Sequence record: MF158043
Length of the DNA stretch: 64,000 bases
Origin: Shigella phage Sf16
Direction: 5' to 3' (one strand)
In this document: piece by piece, positions 2,679-21,471 of the stretch
Position numbering within the stretch: the first letter of the stretch is position 1
How the letters are laid out: each line of letters starts with the position of its first letter
Made by a program: the position numbers and the translations under genes
Notes under the pieces: generated by a model
What the model was told of the DNA's origin: nothing
Seen by the model: the letters and a program-made list of their open reading frames with translations, nothing else
Database searches by the model: none

Positions 2679-3782
2679 ATGTTGACTAATTCTGAAAAAA
2701 GCAGATTTTTCCTTGCTGACTTAACTGGTGAAGTCCAGTCTATTCCAAATACTTACGGATATATCTCTGGTCTGGGACTGTTCCGTTCTGCTCCACAAAC
2801 ACAGACTACTTTCCTGATGGACTTGACTGATTGGGATATCAGCTTACTGGATGCGGTAGACCGTACCAGCCGTAAAGCTGAGACTAGCGCTCCTGAGCGT
2901 GTTCGTCAGATTAGCTTCCCGATGATGTACTTCAAGGAAGTTGAAAGCATCACTCCTGATGAGATTCAGGGTGTTCGTCAGCCAGGCACTGCAAATGAAC
3001 TGACTACTGAAGCAGTTGTACGTGCTAAGAAGCTGATGAAGATTCGTACCAAGTTTGACATTACTCGTGAGTTCTTGTTTATGCAAGCTCTGAAGGGTAA
3101 AGTTATCGACGCTAACGGTGTTCTGTACGCAGACCTGTACAAGCAGTTCGATGTAACTAAGAAGACTATCTACTTCGACTTGGACAACCCGAACTCTGAT
3201 ATCGATGCGCACATTGAAGACCTGCGTATGCACATGGAAGATGAAGCTAAGACAGGTACTGTAATCAACGGTGAAGAAATTCACATCGTTGTTGACAGAA
3301 CTTTCTTCAGCAAGCTTATCAAGCATCCTAAGATTCGTGACGCATACCTTGCACAGCAGACTCCGCTGGCTTGGCAACAGATTACTGGTTCTCTGAGAAC
3401 TGGTGGTACTGACGGTGTTCAGGCTCACATGAACCGTTTCTACTACGGTGGTGTTGTATTCGTACAGTACAACGGTAAGTTCAAAGACAAGCGTGGTAAG
3501 ACTCATACTCTGGTTAGCATTGACGGTGTATCTGATACTAATGTTGGTGTAGGTCACGCATTCCCTAACGTAGCAATGTTAGGTGAAGCTAACAACATCT
3601 TCGAAGTTGCTTACGCTCCATGTCCTAAGATGGGTTATGCAAACACTCTGGGTCAGGAACTGTATGTGTTCGAATATGAGAAAGACCGTGACGAAGGTAT
3701 TGACTTCGAAGCCCACTCTTACATGCTGCCATACTGCACACGTCCTCAACTGCTTGTTGACGTTCGTTCAGACGCTGAGTAA
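2679..3782 (+). CDS. major capsid protein (lambda gpE-like)
   Basis: 367-aa ORF following protease and decoration-like gene, strong RBS, size and order match E-type capsid genes. Confidence 0.65.
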   Translation: MLTNSEKSRFFLADLTGEVQSIPNTYGYISGLGLFRSAPQTQTTFLMDLTDWDISLLDAVDRTSRKAETSAPERVRQISFPMMYFKEVESITPDEIQGVRQPGTANELTTEAVVRAKKLMKIRTKFDITREFLFMQALKGKVIDANGVLYADLYKQFDVTKKTIYFDLDNPNSDIDAHIEDLRMHMEDEAKTGTVINGEEIHIVVDRTFFSKLIKHPKIRDAYLAQQTPLAWQQITGSLRTGGTDGVQAHMNRFYYGGVVFVQYNGKFKDKRGKTHTLVSIDGVSDTNVGVGHAFPNVAMLGEANNIFEVAYAPCPKMGYANTLGQELYVFEYEKDRDEGIDFEAHSYMLPYCTRPQLLVDVRSDAE

Positions 3783-3804
3783 TAACTTGAAAGGAGGGTT
3801 ATAA

Positions 3805-4254
3805 ATGTGTTATACAGGCGACCCCGCTAATAACCCTCTTGATAGAGTTCGAATCCTCTGCACCGACACTGACAACAATGAAATCCTCATTGACCAATCG
3901 GTGCTAGAGTGGTTCTACCAAGAATCTGGAAAGGATGAAAAGAAAGCAGCCATCAAAGCTCTTAAATATTTACTCTTTCAAGTAGCCAAGATGGGAGATG
4001 AGAAAGTTGGTGGTGTTTATTTACGAAACTCTTCCAGATTCAAATCTCTGAAAGCTGTCTATGACGACCTAGTTAAAAGCTCTGTTAGTGGCCTCCCTTA
4101 TGCGGGGGGTATTAACCAGTGTGATATTGATATGCGTCGTCAAAATCCTTGCTCTGTCAAGAAATATACTGAATATGGCGATGCTGTTAGATACTACGGT
4201 AGAGATTACTGTGAACGTGTCAATGGTGTATTTATTATCGAGCGAGATGAATAA
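3805..4254 (+). CDS. hypothetical head-tail joining protein
   Basis: 149-aa ORF, RBS aaggagg upstream, between capsid and sheath genes. Confidence 0.35.
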   Translation: MCYTGDPANNPLDRVRILCTDTDNNEILIDQSVLEWFYQESGKDEKKAAIKALKYLLFQVAKMGDEKVGGVYLRNSSRFKSLKAVYDDLVKSSVSGLPYAGGINQCDIDMRRQNPCSVKKYTEYGDAVRYYGRDYCERVNGVFIIERDE

Positions 4255-4736
4255 TGGTTAAAAGGGTTATTCACCCCGCTAGAGCTAAATTAGTCGGGGC
4301 TATGAAGAACTTGCATACGGCTAATGCTCAAGTTGGGTATTTTCAGGAACAAGGTCAACATAGCTCTGGTTTTTCTTACTCTGCTTTAATGTACTTGCAT
4401 GAAGTTATTGGTGTACCAGCAGCTTCAGGTAAAGTATATCGTAGGTTGTTTGAAATTACTATGATGTTACACAGACAGACCTTGTTAGAGCAGACTAAGA
4501 AGAATCTCTATAAGCAATTAAACAGTCTTAATACTGACCCCTCAGATACTTTAGAAGCATTTGCAAAGAGTGCTCAGAAAGCAATTAAAAGAGGTTTTGG
4601 TAATACGGCTATATTGCCTCCTAACGCTCCATCTACAGTTAAAAAGAAAGGCTTCAATGCCCCTCTTGTGGAAACTGGAGATTTACGAGATAGCCTTGCT
4701 TATAAAATCTCTACTAAGAAAGGTATTAAAAAATGA
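4254..4736 (+). CDS. hypothetical head-tail joining protein
   Basis: 160-aa ORF with overlapping start/stop. Confidence 0.35.
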   Translation: MVKRVIHPARAKLVGAMKNLHTANAQVGYFQEQGQHSSGFSYSALMYLHEVIGVPAASGKVYRRLFEITMMLHRQTLLEQTKKNLYKQLNSLNTDPSDTLEAFAKSAQKAIKRGFGNTAILPPNAPSTVKKKGFNAPLVETGDLRDSLAYKISTKKGIKK

Positions 4737-5134
4737 GACTCTTAAATAGACACAGCTTTGTAGTTAAAAGAAAGGTATCTGAAGATGGTCATTACAATGA
4801 AGATGGTGATTGGGTAGCTTCACAGGATGTTGTATCAATTAACTGCAAAGGTAATATTCAACCTTATATTAAGGGTTCTGTAAAGAATGGTACACAGATT
4901 GTTTTACCTGAAGGTATCAGACTAACAGATACAAGAATCCTTTTCACTGTAGCTGAGTTAAGAACGTCTGATGATGTTGATTGGACTGAAGCTGATATTG
5001 TCATGATTAAGGGACACGAATACGAAGTCTTTATGACAATGGATTGGTCTGAACAATTAGCTCACACATCCCATTATGAGTATATCATTATTAGAAGGGA
5101 TAAGATGAATGCAGTTAGAAACAGCAGAACTTGA
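4733..5134 (+). CDS. hypothetical head-tail joining protein
   Basis: 133-aa ORF with overlapping start/stop. Confidence 0.35.
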   Translation: MRLLNRHSFVVKRKVSEDGHYNEDGDWVASQDVVSINCKGNIQPYIKGSVKNGTQIVLPEGIRLTDTRILFTVAELRTSDDVDWTEADIVMIKGHEYEVFMTMDWSEQLAHTSHYEYIIIRRDKMNAVRNSRT

Positions 5135-5708
5135 GAAAGGTATTGTCCGAGTTTTGGTTGATGTTATTGGTCACCGTCTAGCGAGAGACAAGAATAACAG
5201 ACCAAATGTTATCAGGGCTTACCCTTCAGATAATTCCAATGATAAAGGTCTGAAACCAGACCAACCTTTTATTACAGTATACTGTCAAGATGCTACCACA
5301 CCTTATGGTTGGGTTCTTGATAAGTTCGTGGAAGATGATGCAGTTTGTTACAGAATTGCTTTCCAGATTCCTGTACTGATTACTGTAAATGGTAAAGGTG
5401 CTCACAGTATTATGCTTGAGCTAAAACAAAGATTAGAGATGAGTACTACAAGAGATTATCTAGCTGACATGACAGGTGCTTCAGTACTTGATACAGGGGC
5501 TATCCCGAATGATTATACTTATCTCAACACAGATTTTGAAAATTCTGCACCTCTTGTTGTAACCCTTGTAAAAAATTCAGTATTAAAAGATGAACGTGGA
5601 AGTATTATTGAACGTGTCATTGTGGATGGTGAATTGGTTTACGAGGAAGGACAGGAGCCACCAGAATATACTATCCATCTAGATGTAGACTCCAAAGGGG
5701 TAAAATAA
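5109..5708 (+). CDS. hypothetical neck/tail completion protein
   Basis: 199-aa ORF immediately upstream of sheath gene. Confidence 0.35.
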   Translation: MQLETAELEKGIVRVLVDVIGHRLARDKNNRPNVIRAYPSDNSNDKGLKPDQPFITVYCQDATTPYGWVLDKFVEDDAVCYRIAFQIPVLITVNGKGAHSIMLELKQRLEMSTTRDYLADMTGASVLDTGAIPNDYTYLNTDFENSAPLVVTLVKNSVLKDERGSIIERVIVDGELVYEEGQEPPEYTIHLDVDSKGVK

Positions 5709-7061
5709 ATGTGGAATCCAATTGTTAATGTAGATATTACATTGAACACAGCAGGAACTACAAGAGAAGGTTTTGGTTTACCATTATTCCTTGCTTCAAC
5801 AGATAACTTTGAAGAAAGAATCCGTGGTTACACTTCATTAACAGAAGTAGCCGAAGACTTTGATGAAAGTACTGCTGCGTATAAAGCTGCAAAACAGCTA
5901 TGGAGCCAAACTCCAAAAGTAACTCAACTGTATATTGGTAGAAGAACTATGCAATATACTGTTTCTATTCCTGATACAGTGGCTGAAGGAAGTGAATATT
6001 CATTGACAGTTGCTATCGGTGGTGGTGTTTCTCAGCCATTCCAATACACTGCAAAAGAAAATGACACAGCACTTATTGTCTTGAATGAGTTTAAATCACA
6101 GATTGAAGCAAGCCCAACAATTAAAGATGGTGTTAATGCTAGTGTAACAGGTACTGGTGCTTCTGCGACGATGATTATTACTAAAGCTGGTGATAATGAC
6201 TTCGTAAAAGTAACGTCCATTACACCTACAACGTCTATTGCAGCAACAACTGCTGACACGGCTTCCGCTGCTCTGGCATCCATTGAAACATATTCAACAG
6301 ATTGGTACTTCATCTCAGCAGAAGACAGAACTCAACAGTTTGTCTTGGCAATGGCTTCAGAGATTCAGGCGCGTAAGAAGATTTTCTTCACAGCTAATGC
6401 TGACGTTAAGGCTCTGCAAGGCACTGATTTGACCTCTGCAACAGATGTTCCGGCACAGTTAGCTAAGAGCAAGTACACTCGTACAGTTTGCTTGTGGCAT
6501 CACACAGCCGAGTTTGACTACCCAGAAATGGCTTACATCGCATATGGTGCCCCATATGATGCAGGCTCAATTGCTTGGGGTAACGCCCAATTAACTGGTG
6601 TTGCAGCATCTCTACAACCTGCTAACCAGAGACCACTGATAAGCATTCAGAAGTCAGCTTTAGACACTCGTAGCTGTAACTTCATTGACCTCGATGGTGG
6701 GGTTCCTGTAGTGCGCAGAGGTATCACTTCTGGTGGTGAATGGATTGATATTGTACGTGGTGTTGATTGGCTTGAATCTGATTTGAAAACATCTCTGAGA
6801 GACTTGCTAATTAATCAGAAGGGTGGTAAGATTACTTATGATGATACTGGTATTACCCGTATTCGTCAGGTCATTGAAACATCTCTTCAGCGAGCAGTTA
6901 ACAGAAAATTTTTGTCAACTTACACCGTTACTGTTCCTAAAGCCTCACAAGTTGCATTGGCAGATAAGAAAGCACGTATCCTGAAAGACATTACCTTCCA
7001 CGGTATTCTTGCAGGGGCTATCTTGGATGTTGACTTGAAAGGCACAGTGGCTTACGAATAA
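5709..7061 (+). CDS. tail sheath protein
   Basis: 450-aa ORF directly followed by a small tube-size ORF and a strong terminator; size and order typical of contractile tails. Confidence 0.5.
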   Translation: MWNPIVNVDITLNTAGTTREGFGLPLFLASTDNFEERIRGYTSLTEVAEDFDESTAAYKAAKQLWSQTPKVTQLYIGRRTMQYTVSIPDTVAEGSEYSLTVAIGGGVSQPFQYTAKENDTALIVLNEFKSQIEASPTIKDGVNASVTGTGASATMIITKAGDNDFVKVTSITPTTSIAATTADTASAALASIETYSTDWYFISAEDRTQQFVLAMASEIQARKKIFFTANADVKALQGTDLTSATDVPAQLAKSKYTRTVCLWHHTAEFDYPEMAYIAYGAPYDAGSIAWGNAQLTGVAASLQPANQRPLISIQKSALDTRSCNFIDLDGGVPVVRRGITSGGEWIDIVRGVDWLESDLKTSLRDLLINQKGGKITYDDTGITRIRQVIETSLQRAVNRKFLSTYTVTVPKASQVALADKKARILKDITFHGILAGAILDVDLKGTVAYE

Positions 7062-7075
7062 AGGAGTAATTAGGA

Positions 7076-7522
7076 ATGGCTATGTATCAGCAATATTCCC
7101 CTAAAGATGTAGTTTGTAGCTGGAATGGCATTGCCATTGAAGGTTTTGCACCAGACTCATTCTTGCGTCTTCAGAGAACTTCTCCACTTGTTACGCCAGT
7201 TGTAGGTGCAGGTGGTCAAGTAGCTCTGACAAGAAATGCAGACAAGACAGGTACGATTGAGATTGAGCTAATGCAGACTTCTCTATCAAACCAGATGCTT
7301 TCTGCAATTCAAGCTAAACAAGATGACATGGAACTTGAAGAAGATATCTCATCTAACTTTGTAATTTACGACCCATCTGGTTCAGTTCTGGCAACAGGTA
7401 TTAATGCTTGGTTGCAAGAGCTTCCACAGATTGAATTAGGTCGTGACCAGAACTCGAAAACTTGGATTTTCGGTTGTGAGAAGTTAGACTACACTTCAAC
7501 AATCCCTGCGTCAAGCGTTTAA
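7076..7522 (+). CDS. tail tube protein
   Basis: 148-aa ORF after sheath gene, followed by a terminator. Confidence 0.5.
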   Translation: MAMYQQYSPKDVVCSWNGIAIEGFAPDSFLRLQRTSPLVTPVVGAGGQVALTRNADKTGTIEIELMQTSLSNQMLSAIQAKQDDMELEEDISSNFVIYDPSGSVLATGINAWLQELPQIELGRDQNSKTWIFGCEKLDYTSTIPASSV

Positions 7523-15122: not shown

Positions 15123-15980
15123 ATGTTTAAAAAGATTGAAAACTTTTATGAGAAAACATTGGACGAAAGAACTGTAACTCAATTCAAAGATAAGTTTATT
15201 TACACAAGTCTATTGAAATCTATCACAGATGAGTTACAATTATTAGAGGATATTAGTAATCAGTTATATACTGAAAGAAATATTCGTGTAGGTGTTGGCA
15301 CACAACTTGATAACATCGGGGCTTTGATTAAAGTCCCTAGACCTATTGGTGCTGATGATGACATTTACAGAGCTACCCTCTACATTCAAATTTTCTTAAG
15401 ACGTTCTGACACCACACCAAGCTTCTTACAAAAAGCTGTTATGACCCTTTACAACGCATCATTCAGTCAGATTTTTGAGCACATTACGCCAATGACTGGT
15501 GGAATTGTTATCCGTGTAAACACTCGTAATGACGTGTTAGATACAGCATACACACTTTCTAAGATTGCTGCAACAACTATTGGTTCAGCAGTTATCCTTA
15601 GAGATGTTACCTTAAATGGCACTGCTTGGACTCCTGTAGAGGTTGCTGATTCATCTCTGGCAATCACTGATGAGAACAATAACTGGTTTGTAACAAACAC
15701 TAACAAGGGTCTTATTACGAACAACACAGGTGGCTCTCTAGAAGCAAATAAATTAGGTAGTTTTGCAGATGCAGGTGTAAGAGATGGTTATGTAAGAGTG
15801 GATAAAACTGGTGGAAGTACCAGTAAAGATTATTTAAAAGTCAGCAAAACAAACAATAGCAACGACTATTTCATTGCTGGTAAAGAAACAGTAGCAGGTG
15901 GTGATTATGGGATTATGGCAGAAGTCGCCCAAATCGTCAAAGGCAGAAAAGATAAATCTCAACAAGAAGGAAGTTCATAA
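15123..15980 (+). CDS. putative baseplate/tail-fibre attachment protein
   Basis: ATG at 15123 with AGGAG RBS (track start 15084 is TTG inside upstream gene). Confidence 0.35.
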
Positions 15981-16279
15981 TGTCTCTTTCATGGTCTACA
16001 GACACAGTTGATGCTGACGGTAACCAGCTTAAAGTTTTACCACCTCCAGAAATTCAAGCCACTGGCCTATTAAGGGGTGAACCTATGGGTCGTCAGTGGT
16101 TTAACTATATTATCAACTATTTGCTTAACAAAGTAAATGGTACGGTTGGAGAGGTTCGTTCATTTGCTACGGAGCAACCTGATTTAGTTTCCAATGGTTG
16201 GGAATTAATTGACACAGTAACAGGAACTGCACCCACTAGCACGACTAACCTTTACACATACGAATATAAAGGGAGCTAA
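15980..16279 (+). CDS. hypothetical tail protein
   Basis: 99-aa ORF, ATGA overlap. Confidence 0.35.
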
Positions 16280-16281
16280 TA

Positions 16282-17457
16282 ATGCCAGTCGGTGAAATTC
16301 AAATTAGTGCATTGCCTCAAGCCTCATTGCCTATTGATTTAAGTGATATCTTTCACCTTAAGCAAGGTATCGAGGATAAACGATGCACACTTGAGCAATT
16401 ACTTGCTCCACACGCATCTTTAAGAAATAACCCACACGGTGTTACAAAGGTTCACGTAGAACTCGGTAATGTTGTTAACGCACTCCAATTAGTGGCTGCT
16501 AATAACTTGTCAGACGTGGTTAGTGTTGAAGAGGCTAGGCAGAACCTTAATATTCTATCAAGTGATGAAGTTAATGCCCTTATTCAGAATCACATTAATG
16601 ACAAGAATAACCCTCACAACACTAACAAGATTCAAGTAGGTTTGTCTAATATTCAAAACTGGACATATTCAAACTCTTACTCTGAGGATGCTGATAAGTA
16701 TGCTACTGCAAAAGCTGTGAATGCTTTATACAGGGCTATCCAGAATAGCTATCCAATCGGTACTATTCATTTGTCAGTTAACCCTGCAAACCCATCTACA
16801 TATTTACTTTGTGGTGGTACTTGGGAGTTAGTTTCTAAAGGAAGGTCTCTTGTCGGTTATGACACAGATACAAGACCTGTAGAATCAGTATTTGGTTCTG
16901 CTACTGTAACACTTACACAAAATAACATTCCAAGTCACACACACTCTGTGTTGTTAACTGGTGGTGGACACTCCCACAATGCAACAGTAGTAATTTCTAG
17001 CTTTGACTATGGGACTAAGAGCACATCAAGTTTTGATTATGGCTCTAAGGCCACAAACGACTCTGGAAGCCACGCTCATAATGTTAATGGTTCTGTGAGT
17101 AGTGCTGGTAGTCACAGCCACAGGATTCCATTGAGGGGTTCTGACAGGGGTGGTGTGAACGCTATTACGGCAACGGCTGATGCAGGTGTTGGTAATGCGT
17201 CATATACAGACTTTGATGGGGTTCACACACATACCTTCAACGTTAACTCTTCAGTTGGTGGTAACCACTCTCACAGTGTGTATATCGGAGCACATGGACA
17301 CAGTGTTGCAATTGGTTCACATGGACACTCAGGTACTGTGACAGTTCAATCTTCTGAGCACACTCACTCAGGTACAACTGGTGCATTTGGTGCTGGACAA
17401 GCATTTAATATTGAGCAACCTTCTTATGTTGTATATGTTTGGAAGAGAACTGCGTAA
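16282..17457 (+). CDS. tail fibre protein with His-x-His-rich C-terminal module
   Basis: about ten HxH motifs (HTH, HSH, HAH, HGH...), SFDYGTK repeats, C-terminus ...VWKRTA shared with next gene. Confidence 0.55.
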   Translation: MPVGEIQISALPQASLPIDLSDIFHLKQGIEDKRCTLEQLLAPHASLRNNPHGVTKVHVELGNVVNALQLVAANNLSDVVSVEEARQNLNILSSDEVNALIQNHINDKNNPHNTNKIQVGLSNIQNWTYSNSYSEDADKYATAKAVNALYRAIQNSYPIGTIHLSVNPANPSTYLLCGGTWELVSKGRSLVGYDTDTRPVESVFGSATVTLTQNNIPSHTHSVLLTGGGHSHNATVVISSFDYGTKSTSSFDYGSKATNDSGSHAHNVNGSVSSAGSHSHRIPLRGSDRGGVNAITATADAGVGNASYTDFDGVHTHTFNVNSSVGGNHSHSVYIGAHGHSVAIGSHGHSGTVTVQSSEHTHSGTTGAFGAGQAFNIEQPSYVVYVWKRTA

Positions 17458-17502
17458 TTATTTTATAAGGGGCTACACAGCCCCTAGAAAGAGGATTTAT
17501 AA

Positions 17503-19881
17503 ATGGCTGAATATAAGCTAAGTGAGCTAAACAGTATTGATACAGTTCGCTCAGAAGATTTACTTCACCTAAGAATTATCAAAAGGTCTGATATGCTAGG
17601 TGATGAAGACCGTAAAATGACCTATGCAAATTTCCTTGCCTCTTTCAAACTAGAAAGATTCTTACAACTAACTGGTGGGGATATGACAGGGAATCTTGGC
17701 ATCGTCAAATTAAGATACGGTGGAAAAGACTTATTAGACCCAACAGGTTCTTCTGAGGTTATTCTCGGTGACACTGCCAAGACCTTTAGAATTAATGCAA
17801 GTGCTTTAAGATTAACTGTAAATGATGCCACAAGGTCTGCAACAGTTTATCACACACTTAATAAACCATCTCCTAATGAATTAGGTATGAGAACTAATAC
17901 TGAAAATGATGCAAGATACGCTATGAAGGAAACTGAAAATACCTTCTTGGCAAGACAAATCATTAATATCAACGGTGTTGGTTTGACACTTAAAAGTATC
18001 TTACCAGATGGTGGAGCATATATTGAAGCAAGAGACTCAAATAATGCTTTGAGATTCACAGTTGGTAACTTGACTTCTGGGACTGATGTTACATTAGTTA
18101 ACAGCAAAGGTGCTACGTTGACTCTTGGTACAAACTCTGTTAGTGTTGACAAGAACTTTGAAATCAATGGTCAGGTTCAGCCTAATAACTGGAACAACCT
18201 TGATGCAAGATTCTTTACACAGACTGCTGCTGACCAGAGATTTGCAAGACTTAATGCAAGTAATAACTTTGTTGGGGTTAACAACTTCAACGGGAAGACT
18301 TATGTTATTGCAGATAGTAATGCACTTAACTTAAGAGCGGCTTCAGAGAATGCTGCATTATTTATGCGTGGTTACAACAGTGCTGGGACAGGTGCTTGGT
18401 ATGTGGGTCAACCAGATGGTACGCAGTCTGAGATTGTTTTAGCAAACCAGATGACAAATGTTAACTTGAAAATTGCTACAGAGTTTTCATTTAACAAAGC
18501 TATTAATGTAACTGGTCAGGTAAAACCAAGTGACTTCGCAAACTTTGATACAAGATATGTTCCAAGCTCTTTAACAAACGTGCTTGCAAGAACTAATGCT
18601 GCAAACGTTTTTACTAACCCACAAACTATTGTTACTACAGATGCGGCTTTCACATTGCAAAGTGGGACAGCTAATTCATCACTATATATTGTTGGTGCTA
18701 ATGCAGATGGAAACAGACGTTGGTATGTTGGTAACGGTGAAGGTAGTAGACCAAACTCTCTGTTCCTGTACAACTACTCAAGCGGTGGTGTACAGTTAGA
18801 AATTGCTGATACTTTCATGTTTAATAGAAGCGTATCAGTATCTGGTCAGGTTCAGCCTACAGATTGGACAAACTTTGACTCAAGATACTACACACAATCT
18901 GCTGCAAACTCAAGATATATGTTGTCTGGTGTATCTGGAACGGGAACCGAAGTCGGTGATGCAACAGGTATTGCTTGGAATGCAAAAACAGGTTTGTACA
19001 ATGTTACCAACTCAACTGGTGGTTCGACTCACTTAGTTTACCAAATGTACCTTGGAATTGGCGCATCCACACCTTCTGCACAGCTTAAATTTAACTATAA
19101 GAATGGTGGAATCCACTATAGAACAGCAAGGGATGCTTTTGGTTTTGAAGAGGCTTGGGCTAAAATCTACACAGACCAAGACAAACCTACACCTTCCGAG
19201 ATTGGTACTTACACCAAGGCTGAAGTAGACCAACGTATTGCTTCTGCTGTAACTGATTCTACAGACCTTAAAAAAGTGTATCCAGTTGGTATTGTGACGT
19301 TCTTTGCTTCTAATGTCAACCCAAATACAGCTTTCCCAGGCACTACTTGGACTTACTTGACAGAAGGTGCAAACAGAACTATTAGAATCGGCTCTGCGAA
19401 TGGCTCTGATGTGAAAGGTCTTGGGGGTGCTGATACGGTTGCATTAAGTGTTGGTCACATCCCTGCGCACACTCACGGATTCTCTGGAACGACTTCTTGG
19501 TTTGACTATGGTACTAAGTACACAGATGCTCAGGGTGCTCACGACCATGACAGAGGTAACATGGAAATCTCTGGGGTGTTCGGGTGGTTCAGAAGTGATA
19601 ATGCTGCATTCTATACTGCAAGTGGTGCTTTTGCAATGGGTGGTAGTCAGGCTTCTCATGGTTTCACTGGTTCTAACTTCACATATGGTGCTCCAGTTGA
19701 TTTCTATGCTTCCAGAACTTGGACGGGTAGAACAAGCTGGGTAGGTGCTCATGCTCACGGTGTAGGTATTGGTGGACACAACCACACATTTAGTGGTGAT
19801 ACTGGTGCAACTGGTTCTGGTGCAGCATTCAGTGTTCTTAACACTTACATTAAATTAATGGCTTGGGTAAGAACTGCATAA
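17503..19881 (+). CDS. tail fibre protein (long), with internal ~110-aa repeats and HxH C-terminal module
   Basis: three internal repeats (NGQVQP...NFD.RY), C-terminal HTH/HDH/HAH/HNH motifs and ...AWVRTA ending. Confidence 0.6.
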   Translation: MAEYKLSELNSIDTVRSEDLLHLRIIKRSDMLGDEDRKMTYANFLASFKLERFLQLTGGDMTGNLGIVKLRYGGKDLLDPTGSSEVILGDTAKTFRINASALRLTVNDATRSATVYHTLNKPSPNELGMRTNTENDARYAMKETENTFLARQIININGVGLTLKSILPDGGAYIEARDSNNALRFTVGNLTSGTDVTLVNSKGATLTLGTNSVSVDKNFEINGQVQPNNWNNLDARFFTQTAADQRFARLNASNNFVGVNNFNGKTYVIADSNALNLRAASENAALFMRGYNSAGTGAWYVGQPDGTQSEIVLANQMTNVNLKIATEFSFNKAINVTGQVKPSDFANFDTRYVPSSLTNVLARTNAANVFTNPQTIVTTDAAFTLQSGTANSSLYIVGANADGNRRWYVGNGEGSRPNSLFLYNYSSGGVQLEIADTFMFNRSVSVSGQVQPTDWTNFDSRYYTQSAANSRYMLSGVSGTGTEVGDATGIAWNAKTGLYNVTNSTGGSTHLVYQMYLGIGASTPSAQLKFNYKNGGIHYRTARDAFGFEEAWAKIYTDQDKPTPSEIGTYTKAEVDQRIASAVTDSTDLKKVYPVGIVTFFASNVNPNTAFPGTTWTYLTEGANRTIRIGSANGSDVKGLGGADTVALSVGHIPAHTHGFSGTTSWFDYGTKYTDAQGAHDHDRGNMEISGVFGWFRSDNAAFYTASGAFAMGGSQASHGFTGSNFTYGAPVDFYASRTWTGRTSWVGAHAHGVGIGGHNHTFSGDTGATGSGAAFSVLNTYIKLMAWVRTA

Positions 19882-19889
19882 TTACCTTG

Positions 19890-19918
19890 TTGACTAACTG
19901 TCAAGATGGTGTTAATAT
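19890..19918 (+). promoter_or_regulatory. sigma70-like promoter TTGACT-17-TAATAT overlapping a 10-bp inverted repeat
   Basis: hexamers read directly; inverted repeat caagatggtg/caccatcttg at about 19902-19945. Confidence 0.4.
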
Positions 19919-19967
19919 TTCTTAGTAGGTATTCTCACCATCTTGGCTCAAGAAGTAAGGTGATTAA

Positions 19968-20162
19968 ATGCCAACCATTCTAGCAATCCTCATGAAAAAC
20001 CTTGGGGCATTCTTTTGGAAGCTTCTTTTTTCTCTTCTCAGTGAATACATGATTGAAAAAGTGTTCTTTAAGCTTGCAAGATACCTTGCGAGTAAAACAG
20101 ATACACCTATTGATGATGAATTTGTAGATACCTTGGAAAAGGCTTTTAAAGGTGAGAAATAA
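19968..20162 (+). CDS. small membrane protein
   Basis: 64 aa with hydrophobic N-terminal segment ILAILMKNLGAFFWKLLFSLL. Confidence 0.4.
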   Translation: MPTILAILMKNLGAFFWKLLFSLLSEYMIEKVFFKLARYLASKTDTPIDDEFVDTLEKAFKGEK

Positions 20163-20536
20163 TGAAGTGGCTTGAAGATGCTTTTAAGAATAATATTGGT
20201 GCAATCGTTGTAGGTATTTTCAGTGTAATTGGTATGTACACTACAATGCAGGTCTCTGATGGTAAACAGGAAGTGTCTATCACAAATAAGTTACAGCAGT
20301 TGGATGGTTACTCAAAAGGTAACTATTCAGCTATTCGTGACTTACAATCTGATATGAAGCTCCTACAATTAGGGATGGAGAACCAGAAAGTTCAGCTAGA
20401 GAATGTTAAGGGAGAAAACGCTAAGTTGACTAAGACCCTTGATAAGTTCTCTGACAGTGTTAACAACTTAGCACAATCTGTATCAGCTTTGCAAGCAATT
20501 ACAGAACAAAATACCCAAAGCACTAAAAAGAAATAA
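20162..20536 (+). CDS. membrane-anchored coiled-coil protein
   Basis: N-terminal TM helix IGAIVVGIFSVIGMY, then heptad-like Q/L/K-rich region. Confidence 0.4.
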   Translation: MKWLEDAFKNNIGAIVVGIFSVIGMYTTMQVSDGKQEVSITNKLQQLDGYSKGNYSAIRDLQSDMKLLQLGMENQKVQLENVKGENAKLTKTLDKFSDSVNNLAQSVSALQAITEQNTQSTKKK

Positions 20537-20542
20537 TTCTAA

Positions 20543-20568
20543 GGCTCCTTTTTACGGGAGCCTTTTTG
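20543..20568. terminator. terminator between convergent + and - blocks
   Basis: GGCUCC-uuuuuacg-GGAGCC followed by UUUUUGUUU; sits between convergent stop codons. Confidence 0.55.
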
Positions 20569-20571
20569 TTT

Positions 20572-21471
20572 CTACTTACCTACTGATAAAGGTGCTTCAA
20601 TCTTACCAGCATGTTTATACCCTTTCAATCCACCTAGGAAGTCATCTGCTGTCATATGTCTCAAATCTTCAAGGGACTTCAAATCTTGATGAATTTCAAA
20701 CTTAGGTGCTGGAAACTCTTCATTGCCAAGAAGCTGAAAAACCTGCGACATATGGTTCTGATAGATTTGAGTATCACCATAAGTCCCTACCAGATATCGC
20801 GGTGTATATCCCGTCAGTTTACACAATACTTCCAAGATAAAGGCATAGGAAGCAATGTTAAACGGTAACCCTAAGAACGTATCACAAGAGCGCTGATACC
20901 ATTTCAAATCCACCTCATTAGTGTTCGAGATATAAATCTGAAAAAGTACATGGCAAGGTGCTAATGCCATAGAGTTACTTGAGATATCTGCTGCATTCCA
21001 TGCGTTAACGAGCATGTAACGGTCTGTAGGAGACTTTCTCATCTTCTCTACAAGATTACTCAACTGGTCTACAACAACGCCACCATGACCTTCGTAGGCT
21101 CTCCATTGGACCCCATAGATTCTTCCTCCAGCGTCCTCCAGCCAATCATTCTCTGTAGCATAGGTTGTTTTCAACCAACGTTTAAAATCATCTGTCCAGA
21201 TAGTCCAACGCTCTCCGTCGTTCTCTCCCCAAGTTCTGTAACGCAAATGACCTAGTTGGTTTTCACCGTTCATAAACCATAATGCTTCACCGAGGACTTG
21301 ACGCATAAATGTTTGTTTTGAGGTGATTAATGGAAATCCACTACGCATATCAAAACGGAACTCAGGTGGAGCAAAGGTCGAAATCACTGAGCCAGTTCGG
21401 GTTTTACGCAACTCACCAACTGATAAAACATGGTTTAAAATAGCTTTGTAGCTTACATCTGCTTGTGACAT
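20572..21471 (-). CDS. thyA: thymidylate synthase
   Basis: LAPCHVLFQIY...WYQRSCDTFLGLPFNIASYAFIL...GDTQIYQNH motifs; adjacent DHFR. Confidence 0.8.
   Translation of the reverse strand: MSQADVSYKAILNHVLSVGELRKTRTGSVISTFAPPEFRFDMRSGFPLITSKQTFMRQVLGEALWFMNGENQLGHLRYRTWGENDGERWTIWTDDFKRWLKTTYATENDWLEDAGGRIYGVQWRAYEGHGGVVVDQLSNLVEKMRKSPTDRYMLVNAWNAADISSNSMALAPCHVLFQIYISNTNEVDLKWYQRSCDTFLGLPFNIASYAFILEVLCKLTGYTPRYLVGTYGDTQIYQNHMSQVFQLLGNEEFPAPKFEIHQDLKSLEDLRHMTADDFLGGLKGYKHAGKIEAPLSVGK

Follow-up and report, generated by a model that had tools for sequence, protein, structure and literature searches.

A T4 gp37-type receptor-binding tip predicted on both tail fibres of Shigella phage Sf14

Among the closest described systems is that of the Felixounavirus Bas63, for which cryo-EM and AlphaFold3 revealed in 2025 a collar, a needle with His-x-His (HxH) motifs, and a head on both tail fibres, with a fibre organisation identical to that of gp53 and gp52 of Shigella phage Sf14 (PMC12609058). 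Bas63 gp26/gp27 and FelixO1 ORF180/ORF184 are orthologues of the Sf14 short and long fibres, with the same gene order, and the original FelixO1 annotation named both genes "GP37". Both Sf14 proteins were found in virions by mass spectrometry and docked in the cryo-EM density as fibres of 430 Å (gp52) and 630 Å (gp53) (PMC11821841). The tip of phage T4 gp37 holds seven coordinated irons, with H929/H931 being essential, and its tip residues 932-965 bind LPS/OmpC, as found by mutagenesis (PMC6957217). The occurrence of such a tip on both Ounavirinae fibres is already published (PMC12609058); the present result is a confirmation of it, with the addition of Sf14-specific coordinates.

We analysed a 64-kb window of an 87.6-kb genome, and all gene and domain positions given below refer to its plus (+) strand. 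The two open reading frames reported by the initial annotation are present exactly as described: ORF1, at 16282-17457 (391 aa), is the short tail fibre gp52 of Sf14 (locus tag FDI99_gp105), and ORF2, at 17503-19881 (792 aa), is the long tail fibre gp53 (FDI99_gp104). Indeed, both are 100% identical to Sf14 (NC_042075), where each is annotated as "tail fiber protein", and they match the "tail fiber" families PHROG 2097 (ORF1, E 5e-131) and PHROG 4277 (ORF2, E 0). A scan of 15900-20700 for promoters and terminators returned a terminator hairpin at 20541-20564 as the only clear feature, while promoter-like sites occurred at chance rate (14 seen vs 12.2 expected).

The initial annotation had proposed that the two proteins end with a related module, and the comparison bears this out: BLASTP aligns ORF1 153-391 to ORF2 589-792 with 26% identity (E 6e-19), and the profile-profile alignment of the two families by hhalign gives a probability of 100% (E 2e-50). 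The common terminal motif (V/A)W(K/V)RTA is also there, ORF1 ending with VYVWKRTA and ORF2 with LMAWVRTA. As regards the HxH motifs, ORF1 is rich in them as had been noted, although the true count is nine and not "about ten" (aa 219, 230, 264, 278, 315, 329, 338, 347, and 360), and the count of four for ORF2 is exact (aa 656, 680, 750, and 759). In 2,000 shuffles of each protein these counts were never reached (mean 1.5 and maximum 8 for ORF1, mean 0.25 and maximum 3 for ORF2). The xFDYGTK element had been described as repeated in both proteins; this holds for ORF1, with SFDYGTK and SFDYGSK in tandem at aa 240-257, and not for ORF2, which has a single WFDYGTK at aa 666. At the DNA level, the ORF1 and ORF2 modules show no likeness beyond one 31-nt patch. 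Since the two modules are only 26% identical as proteins and all but without similarity as DNA, a recent tandem duplication is ruled out as their origin.

The module was then compared with the T4 gp37 tip. ORF1 146-363 matches its crystal structure 2XGF with E 4e-25, over chain residues 18-228 of 242. For ORF2, the single sequence gives E 1e-3 and the family profile E 1e-39, over chain residues 10-239. Each of the seven T4 HxH motifs (883, 915, 929, 966, 980, 989, and 998) aligns with an HxH of ORF1, which has two more, and ORF2 has HxH at four of the seven T4-equivalent sites, namely, the collar-proximal ones. The HxH histidines are kept in 26-36 of 36 ORF1 homologues and in 18-29 of 29 ORF2 homologues and are usually lost pairwise, whereas several histidines outside the motifs (H58, H163, H652, and H719) are conserved much less. 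The collar is split by an insert holding needle and head: the 139-position Pfam profile Gp10_C is spread over ORF1 155-390 and ORF2 590-790. Taken as a whole, these matches make it very probable that the module shared by the two fibres is a receptor-binding tip of T4 gp37 type, composed of a collar, an HxH needle, and a variable head. The reading of the initial annotation, a metal-stabilised receptor-binding or collar module akin to the T4 gp37/gp12 tips, is thus supported by sequence and profile evidence, namely, by the 2XGF and Gp10_C matches, the HxH alignment, and the paired conservation of the histidines.

The two modules are carried by two different shafts, in agreement with what had been noted. 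The shaft of ORF1 is short, with two NNPHxxTKxxVxLxNVxN repeats read from the sequence (aa 48-67 and 108-127; 16423-16662), and among the 36 homologues its H44 and H52 are invariant. The Pfam domains gp37_trimer and gp37_C are absent from ORF1. Its collar begins with aa 146-228 (16717-16965; YPIGTI...GGTWE...GRSLVG...IPSHTHS), supported by Gp10_C, 2FKK, and 2XGF matches, with the domain boundaries set by the alignment. More precisely, Gp10_C (PF21939) covers aa 155-390 along profile positions 4-139 of 139 (E 5e-17), with a score of 63.5 bits, over the gathering threshold of 27 bits, and the collar matches T4 gp10 (2FKK) with E 5e-7. The putative outbound needle strand follows (aa 229-280; 16966-17121), with HxH 230/264/278 and the tandem FDYG(T/S)K; it aligns to T4 gp37 883-931, and the Fe-binding H929/H931 fall inside this alignment. 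The predicted head, or distal tip, occupies aa 281-314 (17122-17223), is equal in length to the T4 gp37 residues 932-965 to which it aligns, and would be the receptor-contact surface. Then comes the inbound needle strand (aa 315-362; 17224-17367), with HxH 315/329/338/347/360, which aligns to T4 gp37 966-1000, opposite the T4 motifs 966, 980, 989, and 998, and which keeps its HxH histidines in 31-36 of 36 homologues. The C-terminal part of the collar (aa 363-391; 17368-17454) matches the end of the Gp10_C profile and closes with the strand VYVWKRTA, which is also found in T4 gp10 ("YITVYRWIRIA") and of which Y385, W387, and R389 are invariant in the 36-homologue alignment.

The shaft of ORF2 (aa ~70-474; 17710-18924) is made of three repeat units, each ending GQV.P...(D/N)(A/T/S)R(F/Y) with the motif at aa 223, 338, and 448, and it is matched by gp37_trimer (PF20744) in three stretches (E 4e-44, 149 bits). 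It is followed by a gp37_C domain similar to the S fibre of phage Mu (PF12604; aa 478-587, 18934-19263; E 3e-20, 72.5 bits), which also matches the Mu tail fibre S/S' structure 8JU3 (E 3e-21). With both domains above threshold and the similarity to 8JU3, the ORF2 shaft is, on domain matches, a Mu-type tail fibre shaft of the gp49/gp52 (S/S') kind. The N-terminal part of the collar (aa 590-655; 19270-19467) was delimited by Gp10_C, 2XGF, and 2FKK profile matches and by hhalign. Here, Gp10_C spans aa 590-790 with a score of 25.9 bits, slightly short of the 27-bit gathering threshold; close homologues have precomputed PF21939 hits, and the family profile matches T4 gp10 (2FKK) with E 2.5e-7, terminal strand included. 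A short outbound needle, defined by motif count and alignment (aa 656-682; 19468-19548), has HxH 656/680 and the one FDYGTK, and its H656, H658, H680, and H682 are invariant among 29 homologues. The predicted head cassette (aa 683-749; 19549-19749) consists of 67 aa, with 13 aromatic residues and no HxH. The inbound needle is even shorter (aa 750-761; 19750-19785), with HxH 750/759 aligned to T4 gp37 HxH 989/998; of the 29 homologues, 28 keep H750/H752 and 18 keep H759/H761. Finally, the C-terminal part of the collar, placed by profile matches (aa 762-792; 19786-19878), ends with LMAWVRTA, and the W and R of this terminal strand are nearly invariant.

The resemblance to the T4 gp37 tip extends to the split collar, the predicted out-and-back HxH needle, the FDYGTK repeat, and, in ORF1, a head of equal length. 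There are also differences. ORF1 has two extra collar-proximal HxH, nine in total, and in ORF2 the distal needle and head are replaced by the 67-aa aromatic-rich head; because three of the seven T4-equivalent sites are missing from it, the ORF2 needle may be much shorter than that of T4 or built differently. The T4 gp37 collar ends with IVRLA, whereas those of Sf14 end with a gp10-like WxRTA, and in both ORFs the match to the T4 gp10 C-terminal domain (2FKK) takes in the two collar halves with this final YxWxRxA strand. Furthermore, the Sf14 tip is carried on short, single-protein fibres of a Mu-like baseplate, while the T4 fibre is made of four proteins.

From homology to these proteins and from the description of Bas63, we infer a topology in which the chain doubles back to the collar. 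Both gp52 and gp53 would be homotrimeric fibres, each ending in a tip of T4 gp37 type that begins with the collar domain (the gp10/gp12 "Collar"/Gp10_C fold). The chain would leave the collar as an outward beta strand, turn in the small head, and return, the final Y-x-W-x-R-T-A strand completing the collar, so that in the trimer the needle would be six-stranded, with three outbound and three inbound strands. Since the chain would run out along the needle, turn at the head, and come back, the C-terminus of the module is not its tip in space: the conserved terminal WxRTA belongs to the collar as one of its strands, and the head lies mid-module. The receptor-contacting head is predicted at about aa 281-314 in ORF1 and about aa 683-749 in ORF2. 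Each HxH would turn two histidines inward, and the three chains would thereby place six histidines around a single metal ion lying on the three-fold axis. This axial metal is iron in T4, and by homology there would be up to nine metal sites in ORF1 and four in ORF2. Such metal staples could stiffen the thin needle and fix the register of its strands, and the head at the turn would touch the host receptor, probably the LPS core. The trimeric geometry, the occupancy and identity of the metals, and the receptors of the Sf14 fibres are all what we infer by analogy.

Structure prediction was also attempted. The AlphaFold2 monomer of full-length ORF1 (36-sequence alignment) has a mean pLDDT of 63 and that of the ORF2 tip (29-sequence alignment) of 59.5; in both models the needle and the head stay under 50. 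Foldseek searches of these two low-confidence models against the PDB gave no match at E<=0.001; T4 gp10 chains came first (for ORF1 with E 0.14, for the ORF2 tip with E 5e-3 and probability 0.96), together with a Bizionia C24 protein. This outcome is consistent with the sequence evidence and is not independent support for it. In the Sf14 paper, the related ("C24-like") domain of gp52 was placed in the centre of the fibre and not at its tip (PMC11821841).

Among the alternative explanations, the one that survives best keeps the same fold and has HxH motifs without iron: another metal could be bound, or part of the nine and four sites could be empty, ORF1 H219/H221 and H360/H362 being perhaps metal-free structural histidines. 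Zinc is the metal reported for T4 gp12, and a sequence does not identify its metal. T4 lacks a counterpart of the two extra ORF1 motifs, and the Bas63 authors count seven di-histidine motifs, not nine, in the orthologous short-fibre needle (PMC12609058), while our own count for the FelixO1 short fibre is nine. However, the extra motifs are conserved like the T4-equivalent ones (H219 in 35/36 homologues, H221 in 33/36, and H360/H362 in 33/36), and they are symmetric, one outbound and one inbound, as expected if the needle was one layer longer. We thus regard this alternative as improbable.

Less probable still is that the module is a structural or attachment collar only, like the T4 gp10 C-terminal domain, binding virion proteins and having no receptor role. 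This is what one could read from Gp10_C being the only Pfam family match over the module, from the T4 gp10 chains heading the weak Foldseek matches, and from the gp10 C-terminus-like domain remarked on in gp52 by the Sf14 paper (PMC11821841). The alignment of T4 gp10, however, is confined to the two halves of the collar (aa 144-228 and the final ~20 residues), whereas the insert between them, of ~140 aa in ORF1 and ~105 aa in ORF2, has its counterpart in the needle and head of gp37 and not in gp10. T4 gp10, a protein of the baseplate, serves to anchor the short fibres and is not a receptor binder, and it is without HxH needle or head insert. The baseplate-binding ends of the fibres are the N-termini and not the module-bearing C-termini (PMC11821841, PMC12609058), and the centre of the insert is hypervariable and swapped among phages, which is what one would expect of a receptor-binding surface.

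The idea that the histidine-rich pattern is a coincidence of composition or of low complexity (Gly/Ser/His-rich repeats), for which the abundance of G, S, T, and H in the region and the low AlphaFold2 monomer confidence there could speak, has a negligible probability and is ruled out by the shuffles, by the motif-by-motif homology to the crystal structure 2XGF, and by the conservation of the histidine pairs across 29-36 diverse homologues.

Having weighed these alternatives, we return to the gp37-type tip and to the variability of its head. In both fibre families, conservation is lowest in the head. Across the 36 homologues of ORF1, this block has an identity of 0.18-0.25 to the query, and the main indel sites, positions 283 and 294, lie within it. 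The comparison with Michonne and FelixO1 gives the same picture: the ORF1 head has 23-29% identity vs 73-97% at the protein ends (aa 1-60 and 361-390), and the ORF2 head has 11-23% vs 63-83% in the flanks. Although the ORF1 module of FelixO1 is 59% identical (tblastn), the head sequences of the FelixO1/Bas63 orthologues are unrelated to those of Sf14, with 11-29% identity in the head blocks. The long fibre of FelixO1 has six HxH, compared with four in Sf14, and its distal needle and head are nearly identical on both fibres, whereas the two heads of Sf14 differ and would be borne on shafts of different length.

The ORF2 head, on the other hand, is 66-72% identical to the heads of the fibres P0139 and P0136 of Mu-like E. 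coli and Citrobacter prophages, whose genes lie among those of a Mu-type baseplate. These prophage fibres differ from those of Sf14 in having a T4-type collar ending NIAFNYIVRLA, followed by a chaperone gene (Caudo_TAP), whereas Sf14 has the gp10-type collar ending and no adjoining Caudo_TAP gene. The sequence comparisons hence show the heads to be hypervariable and a cassette-like exchange in the case of the ORF2 head, the receptor role of the heads being putative.

T4 gp37 has a dedicated chaperone, gp38. A tblastn search with T4 gp38 against the 64-kb window found nothing better than E 1.4, and no gp38/Tfa-type chaperone gene was found adjoining the fibre genes, the two small downstream ORFs matching only PHROG families of unknown function. 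Nor does the Sf14 paper report any homologue of the Mu chaperones (PMC11821841). The assembly chaperone is an accessory feature and not a feature of the fold.

A bolder scenario, which we consider possible and on balance doubtful, is that gp53, beyond mere divergence, gained a whole head cassette from fibres of Mu-like enterobacterial prophages (aa ~683-749), grafted between the collar-proximal HxH layers of an Ounavirinae collar, that the cassette, like the nine-site gp52 needle, folds without a Tfa/gp38-type chaperone such as goes with this head in prophages, and that FelixO1 homogenised its two heads. If this were true, the boundaries of the HxH layers would be natural, chaperone-independent splice points for host-range engineering.

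As proposed above, it is in the head that phages would diverge or exchange sequence, and the head would therefore be the determinant of host range. On this reading, the tip module would decide which bacteria an Ounavirinae phage adsorbs to, and the border between the scaffold (collar and HxH layers) and the head would tell engineers where to cut for retargeting Shigella, E. coli, and Salmonella phages.

The 3.6-kb fibre region was 100% identical to that of Shigella phage Sf14 (NC_042075; Mooglevirus, Ounavirinae), where both genes are annotated as encoding tail fibre proteins: ORF1 (16282-17457, 391 aa) is FDI99_gp105 and ORF2 (17503-19881, 792 aa) is FDI99_gp104. In the 2025 structural paper on Sf14 (PMC11821841), they correspond to gp52, the short fibre (~430 Å), and gp53, the long fibre (~630 Å); both were detected in virions by mass spectrometry, and the paper fits AlphaFold trimers of both into its cryo-EM density. 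The fibre genes close the baseplate gene cluster, with a Baseplate_J wedge gene upstream, and are followed by two small genes and a terminator, beyond which lie convergent thymidylate synthase and DHFR genes.

Directly 5' of the short-fibre gene, a 99-aa ORF (15980-16279) corresponds to Sf14 gp51, which the same paper lists as "homolog of T4 gp11?" and without mass spectrometry detection (PMC11821841). It gave no Pfam match and a PHROG match only to 4141, a family of unknown function; a possible counterpart is the "LTF platform" protein of the Felixounavirus Bas63. The two small genes after the fibres (19968-20162, 64 aa; 20162-20536, 124 aa) encode membrane-type proteins, with PHROG matches solely to families of unknown function. 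The 124-aa protein has a hydrophobic N-terminal segment followed by a coiled-coil-like region, and it is annotated as a "putative holin", yet it appears in the mass spectrometry list of purified virions (PMC11821841, Table 1). The GC-rich hairpin at 20541-20564, perfectly paired over 9 bp and accompanied by T-runs on both strands, is likely a bidirectional terminator, separating the end of the structural/lysis operon from the convergent thymidylate synthase gene.

The initial annotation described a related C-terminal module in the two fibres, and this observation was confirmed with just two corrections. ORF1 carries nine HxH motifs (aa 219, 230, 264, 278, 315, 329, 338, 347, and 360) rather than about ten, while the four claimed for ORF2 are present (aa 656, 680, 750, and 759). 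After residue shuffling (n = 2000), the mean counts were 1.5 for ORF1 and 0.25 for ORF2, and no shuffle reached the observed values. The FDYG(T/S)K motif is repeated in tandem in ORF1 (two copies), but it occurs once in ORF2, so that the repeat proposed for both fibres holds for the first alone. The expected (V/A)W(K/V)RTA ending is found in both proteins (VYVWKRTA in ORF1 and LMAWVRTA in ORF2). The modules share 26% identity (BLASTP, E 6e-19), and the profile-profile comparison between the two families gave a probability of 100% (E 2e-50); the modules are homologous. At the DNA level, the similarity between them is essentially none, which rules out a recent duplication as their origin.

The idea that the module is a metal-stabilised receptor-binding or collar tip akin to those of T4 fibres proved essentially right by homology, and the module is clearly related to known fibre tips. 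ORF1 aa 146-363 matched the receptor-binding tip of T4 gp37 (crystal structure 2XGF; E 4e-25), and its N-terminal collar part matched the T4 gp10 C-terminal domain (2FKK; E 5e-7). As a single sequence, ORF2 reached 2XGF with E 1e-3 only; a profile of its last 213 residues (29 homologues) matched nearly the full 2XGF chain (E 1e-39) and also gp10 (E 2.5e-7), including the terminal strand YITVYRWIRIA. Pfam Gp10_C was found at ORF1 aa 155-390 (63.5 bits) and at ORF2 aa 590-790 (25.9 bits, slightly under the cut-off of 27). Since this 139-position profile spans 200-235 residues, the collar is interrupted by a large insert. In T4, the corresponding insert is the needle plus the head: the chain goes out, turns at the head and returns, and the needle of the trimer is six-stranded, with seven iron ions bound by HxH motifs (PMC6957217; PMC12609058). 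Monomer prediction with AlphaFold2 gave low-confidence models (pLDDT 63 and 59.5), for which Foldseek returned only weak matches, to gp10 and C24.

In the phmmer alignment, all seven T4 gp37 motifs (outbound strand: 883, 915, and 929; inbound strand: 966, 980, 989, and 998) pair with ORF1 motifs 230, 264, 278, 315, 329, 338, and 347. The surplus motifs, 219 and 360, lie one per strand at the collar end, as if the ORF1 needle were one layer longer than that of T4. The ORF2 motifs are the four collar-proximal ones; the 67 aa between H682 and H750 include 13 aromatic residues and lack HxH motifs.

The HxH histidines of ORF1 are kept in 26-36 of 36 homologues and, when lost, usually both of a pair disappear, mostly through a gap. 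Non-motif histidines vary: H58 (4/36) and H163 (25/36) are clearly below most motif positions; H25, H104, and H112 (30-31/36) are on par with the weaker ones, and H44 and H52, in the NPH region of the shaft, are invariant. This shaft contains two NNPHxxTKxxVxLxNVxN repeats (16423-16482 and 16603-16662). All 29 ORF2-tip homologues have H656, H658, H680, and H682; 28 keep H750/H752 and 18 keep H759/H761, and H652 and H719 are unconserved. Conservation in the ORF1 family is lowest at aa 281-310 (identity to the query 0.18-0.25), where the main indel sites also fall; this stretch aligns, at equal length, with T4 residues 932-959, the LPS/OmpC-binding tip defined by mutagenesis (PMC6957217). Compared with Michonne and FelixO1, the head blocks of the Sf14 fibres are 11-29% identical and the collar and N-terminal regions 63-97%.

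Each fibre would most likely be a homotrimer fixed to the baseplate by its N-terminus, near which both sequences carry an E-D-(K/R)-(R/K)-x-T motif; in the module, a collar would carry a needle stapled by metal, and the distal head would touch the receptor, probably the LPS core. The analysis itself established the homology, the alignment of the motifs, the conservation of the histidines as pairs and the variability of the head, whereas we infer the trimer geometry, the occupancy and identity of the metal, and the receptors.

The feature is already known: both FelixO1 fibre genes were originally annotated as "putative tail fiber protein GP37", and the Bas63 paper describes the tips as the most variable fibre part, in an organisation identical to Sf14 gp53/gp52 (PMC12609058). 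The Sf14 paper assigned a gp37-like distal tip to gp53, and a gp10-C-like and "C24-like" domain to gp52, placed "in the centre of the fibre" (PMC11821841). By sequence, gp52 is much nearer to the T4 gp37 tip than gp53 (E 4e-25 versus 1e-3), and the hairpin topology accounts for a segment central in the sequence being the tip in space; this amounts to a small correction and no new finding. A further site, ORF1 aa 31-36 (16372-16389), was noted alongside the same paper (PMC11821841).

Three aspects appear to be undescribed: the four-site needle of gp53 with its prophage-type head, the fact that no chaperone gene lies nearby, and the homogenised heads of FelixO1. The ORF2 head (19549-19749) is 66-72% identical to that of two 344-aa fibres of Mu-like E. 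coli/Citrobacter prophages (P0139 and P0136), whose collar differs, being T4-type and ending in NIAFNYIVRLA; thus, the head acts as a mobile cassette between scaffolds. In sequence L006 (4001-5398), the P0139 gene, which sits in a Mu-type baseplate cluster, is followed by a Caudo_TAP chaperone gene; no such gene was found after ORF2, and no T4 gp38 homologue within the window. In FelixO1 (sequence L005), the short and long fibre genes (3554-4720 and 4771-7119) encode a near-identical distal needle and head of ~90 aa (81% DNA identity over 270 nt) between collar parts that are only ~30% identical, a pattern that suggests intragenomic exchange. Thus, both FelixO1 fibres may bind one receptor. 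The two Sf14 heads are mutually unrelated.
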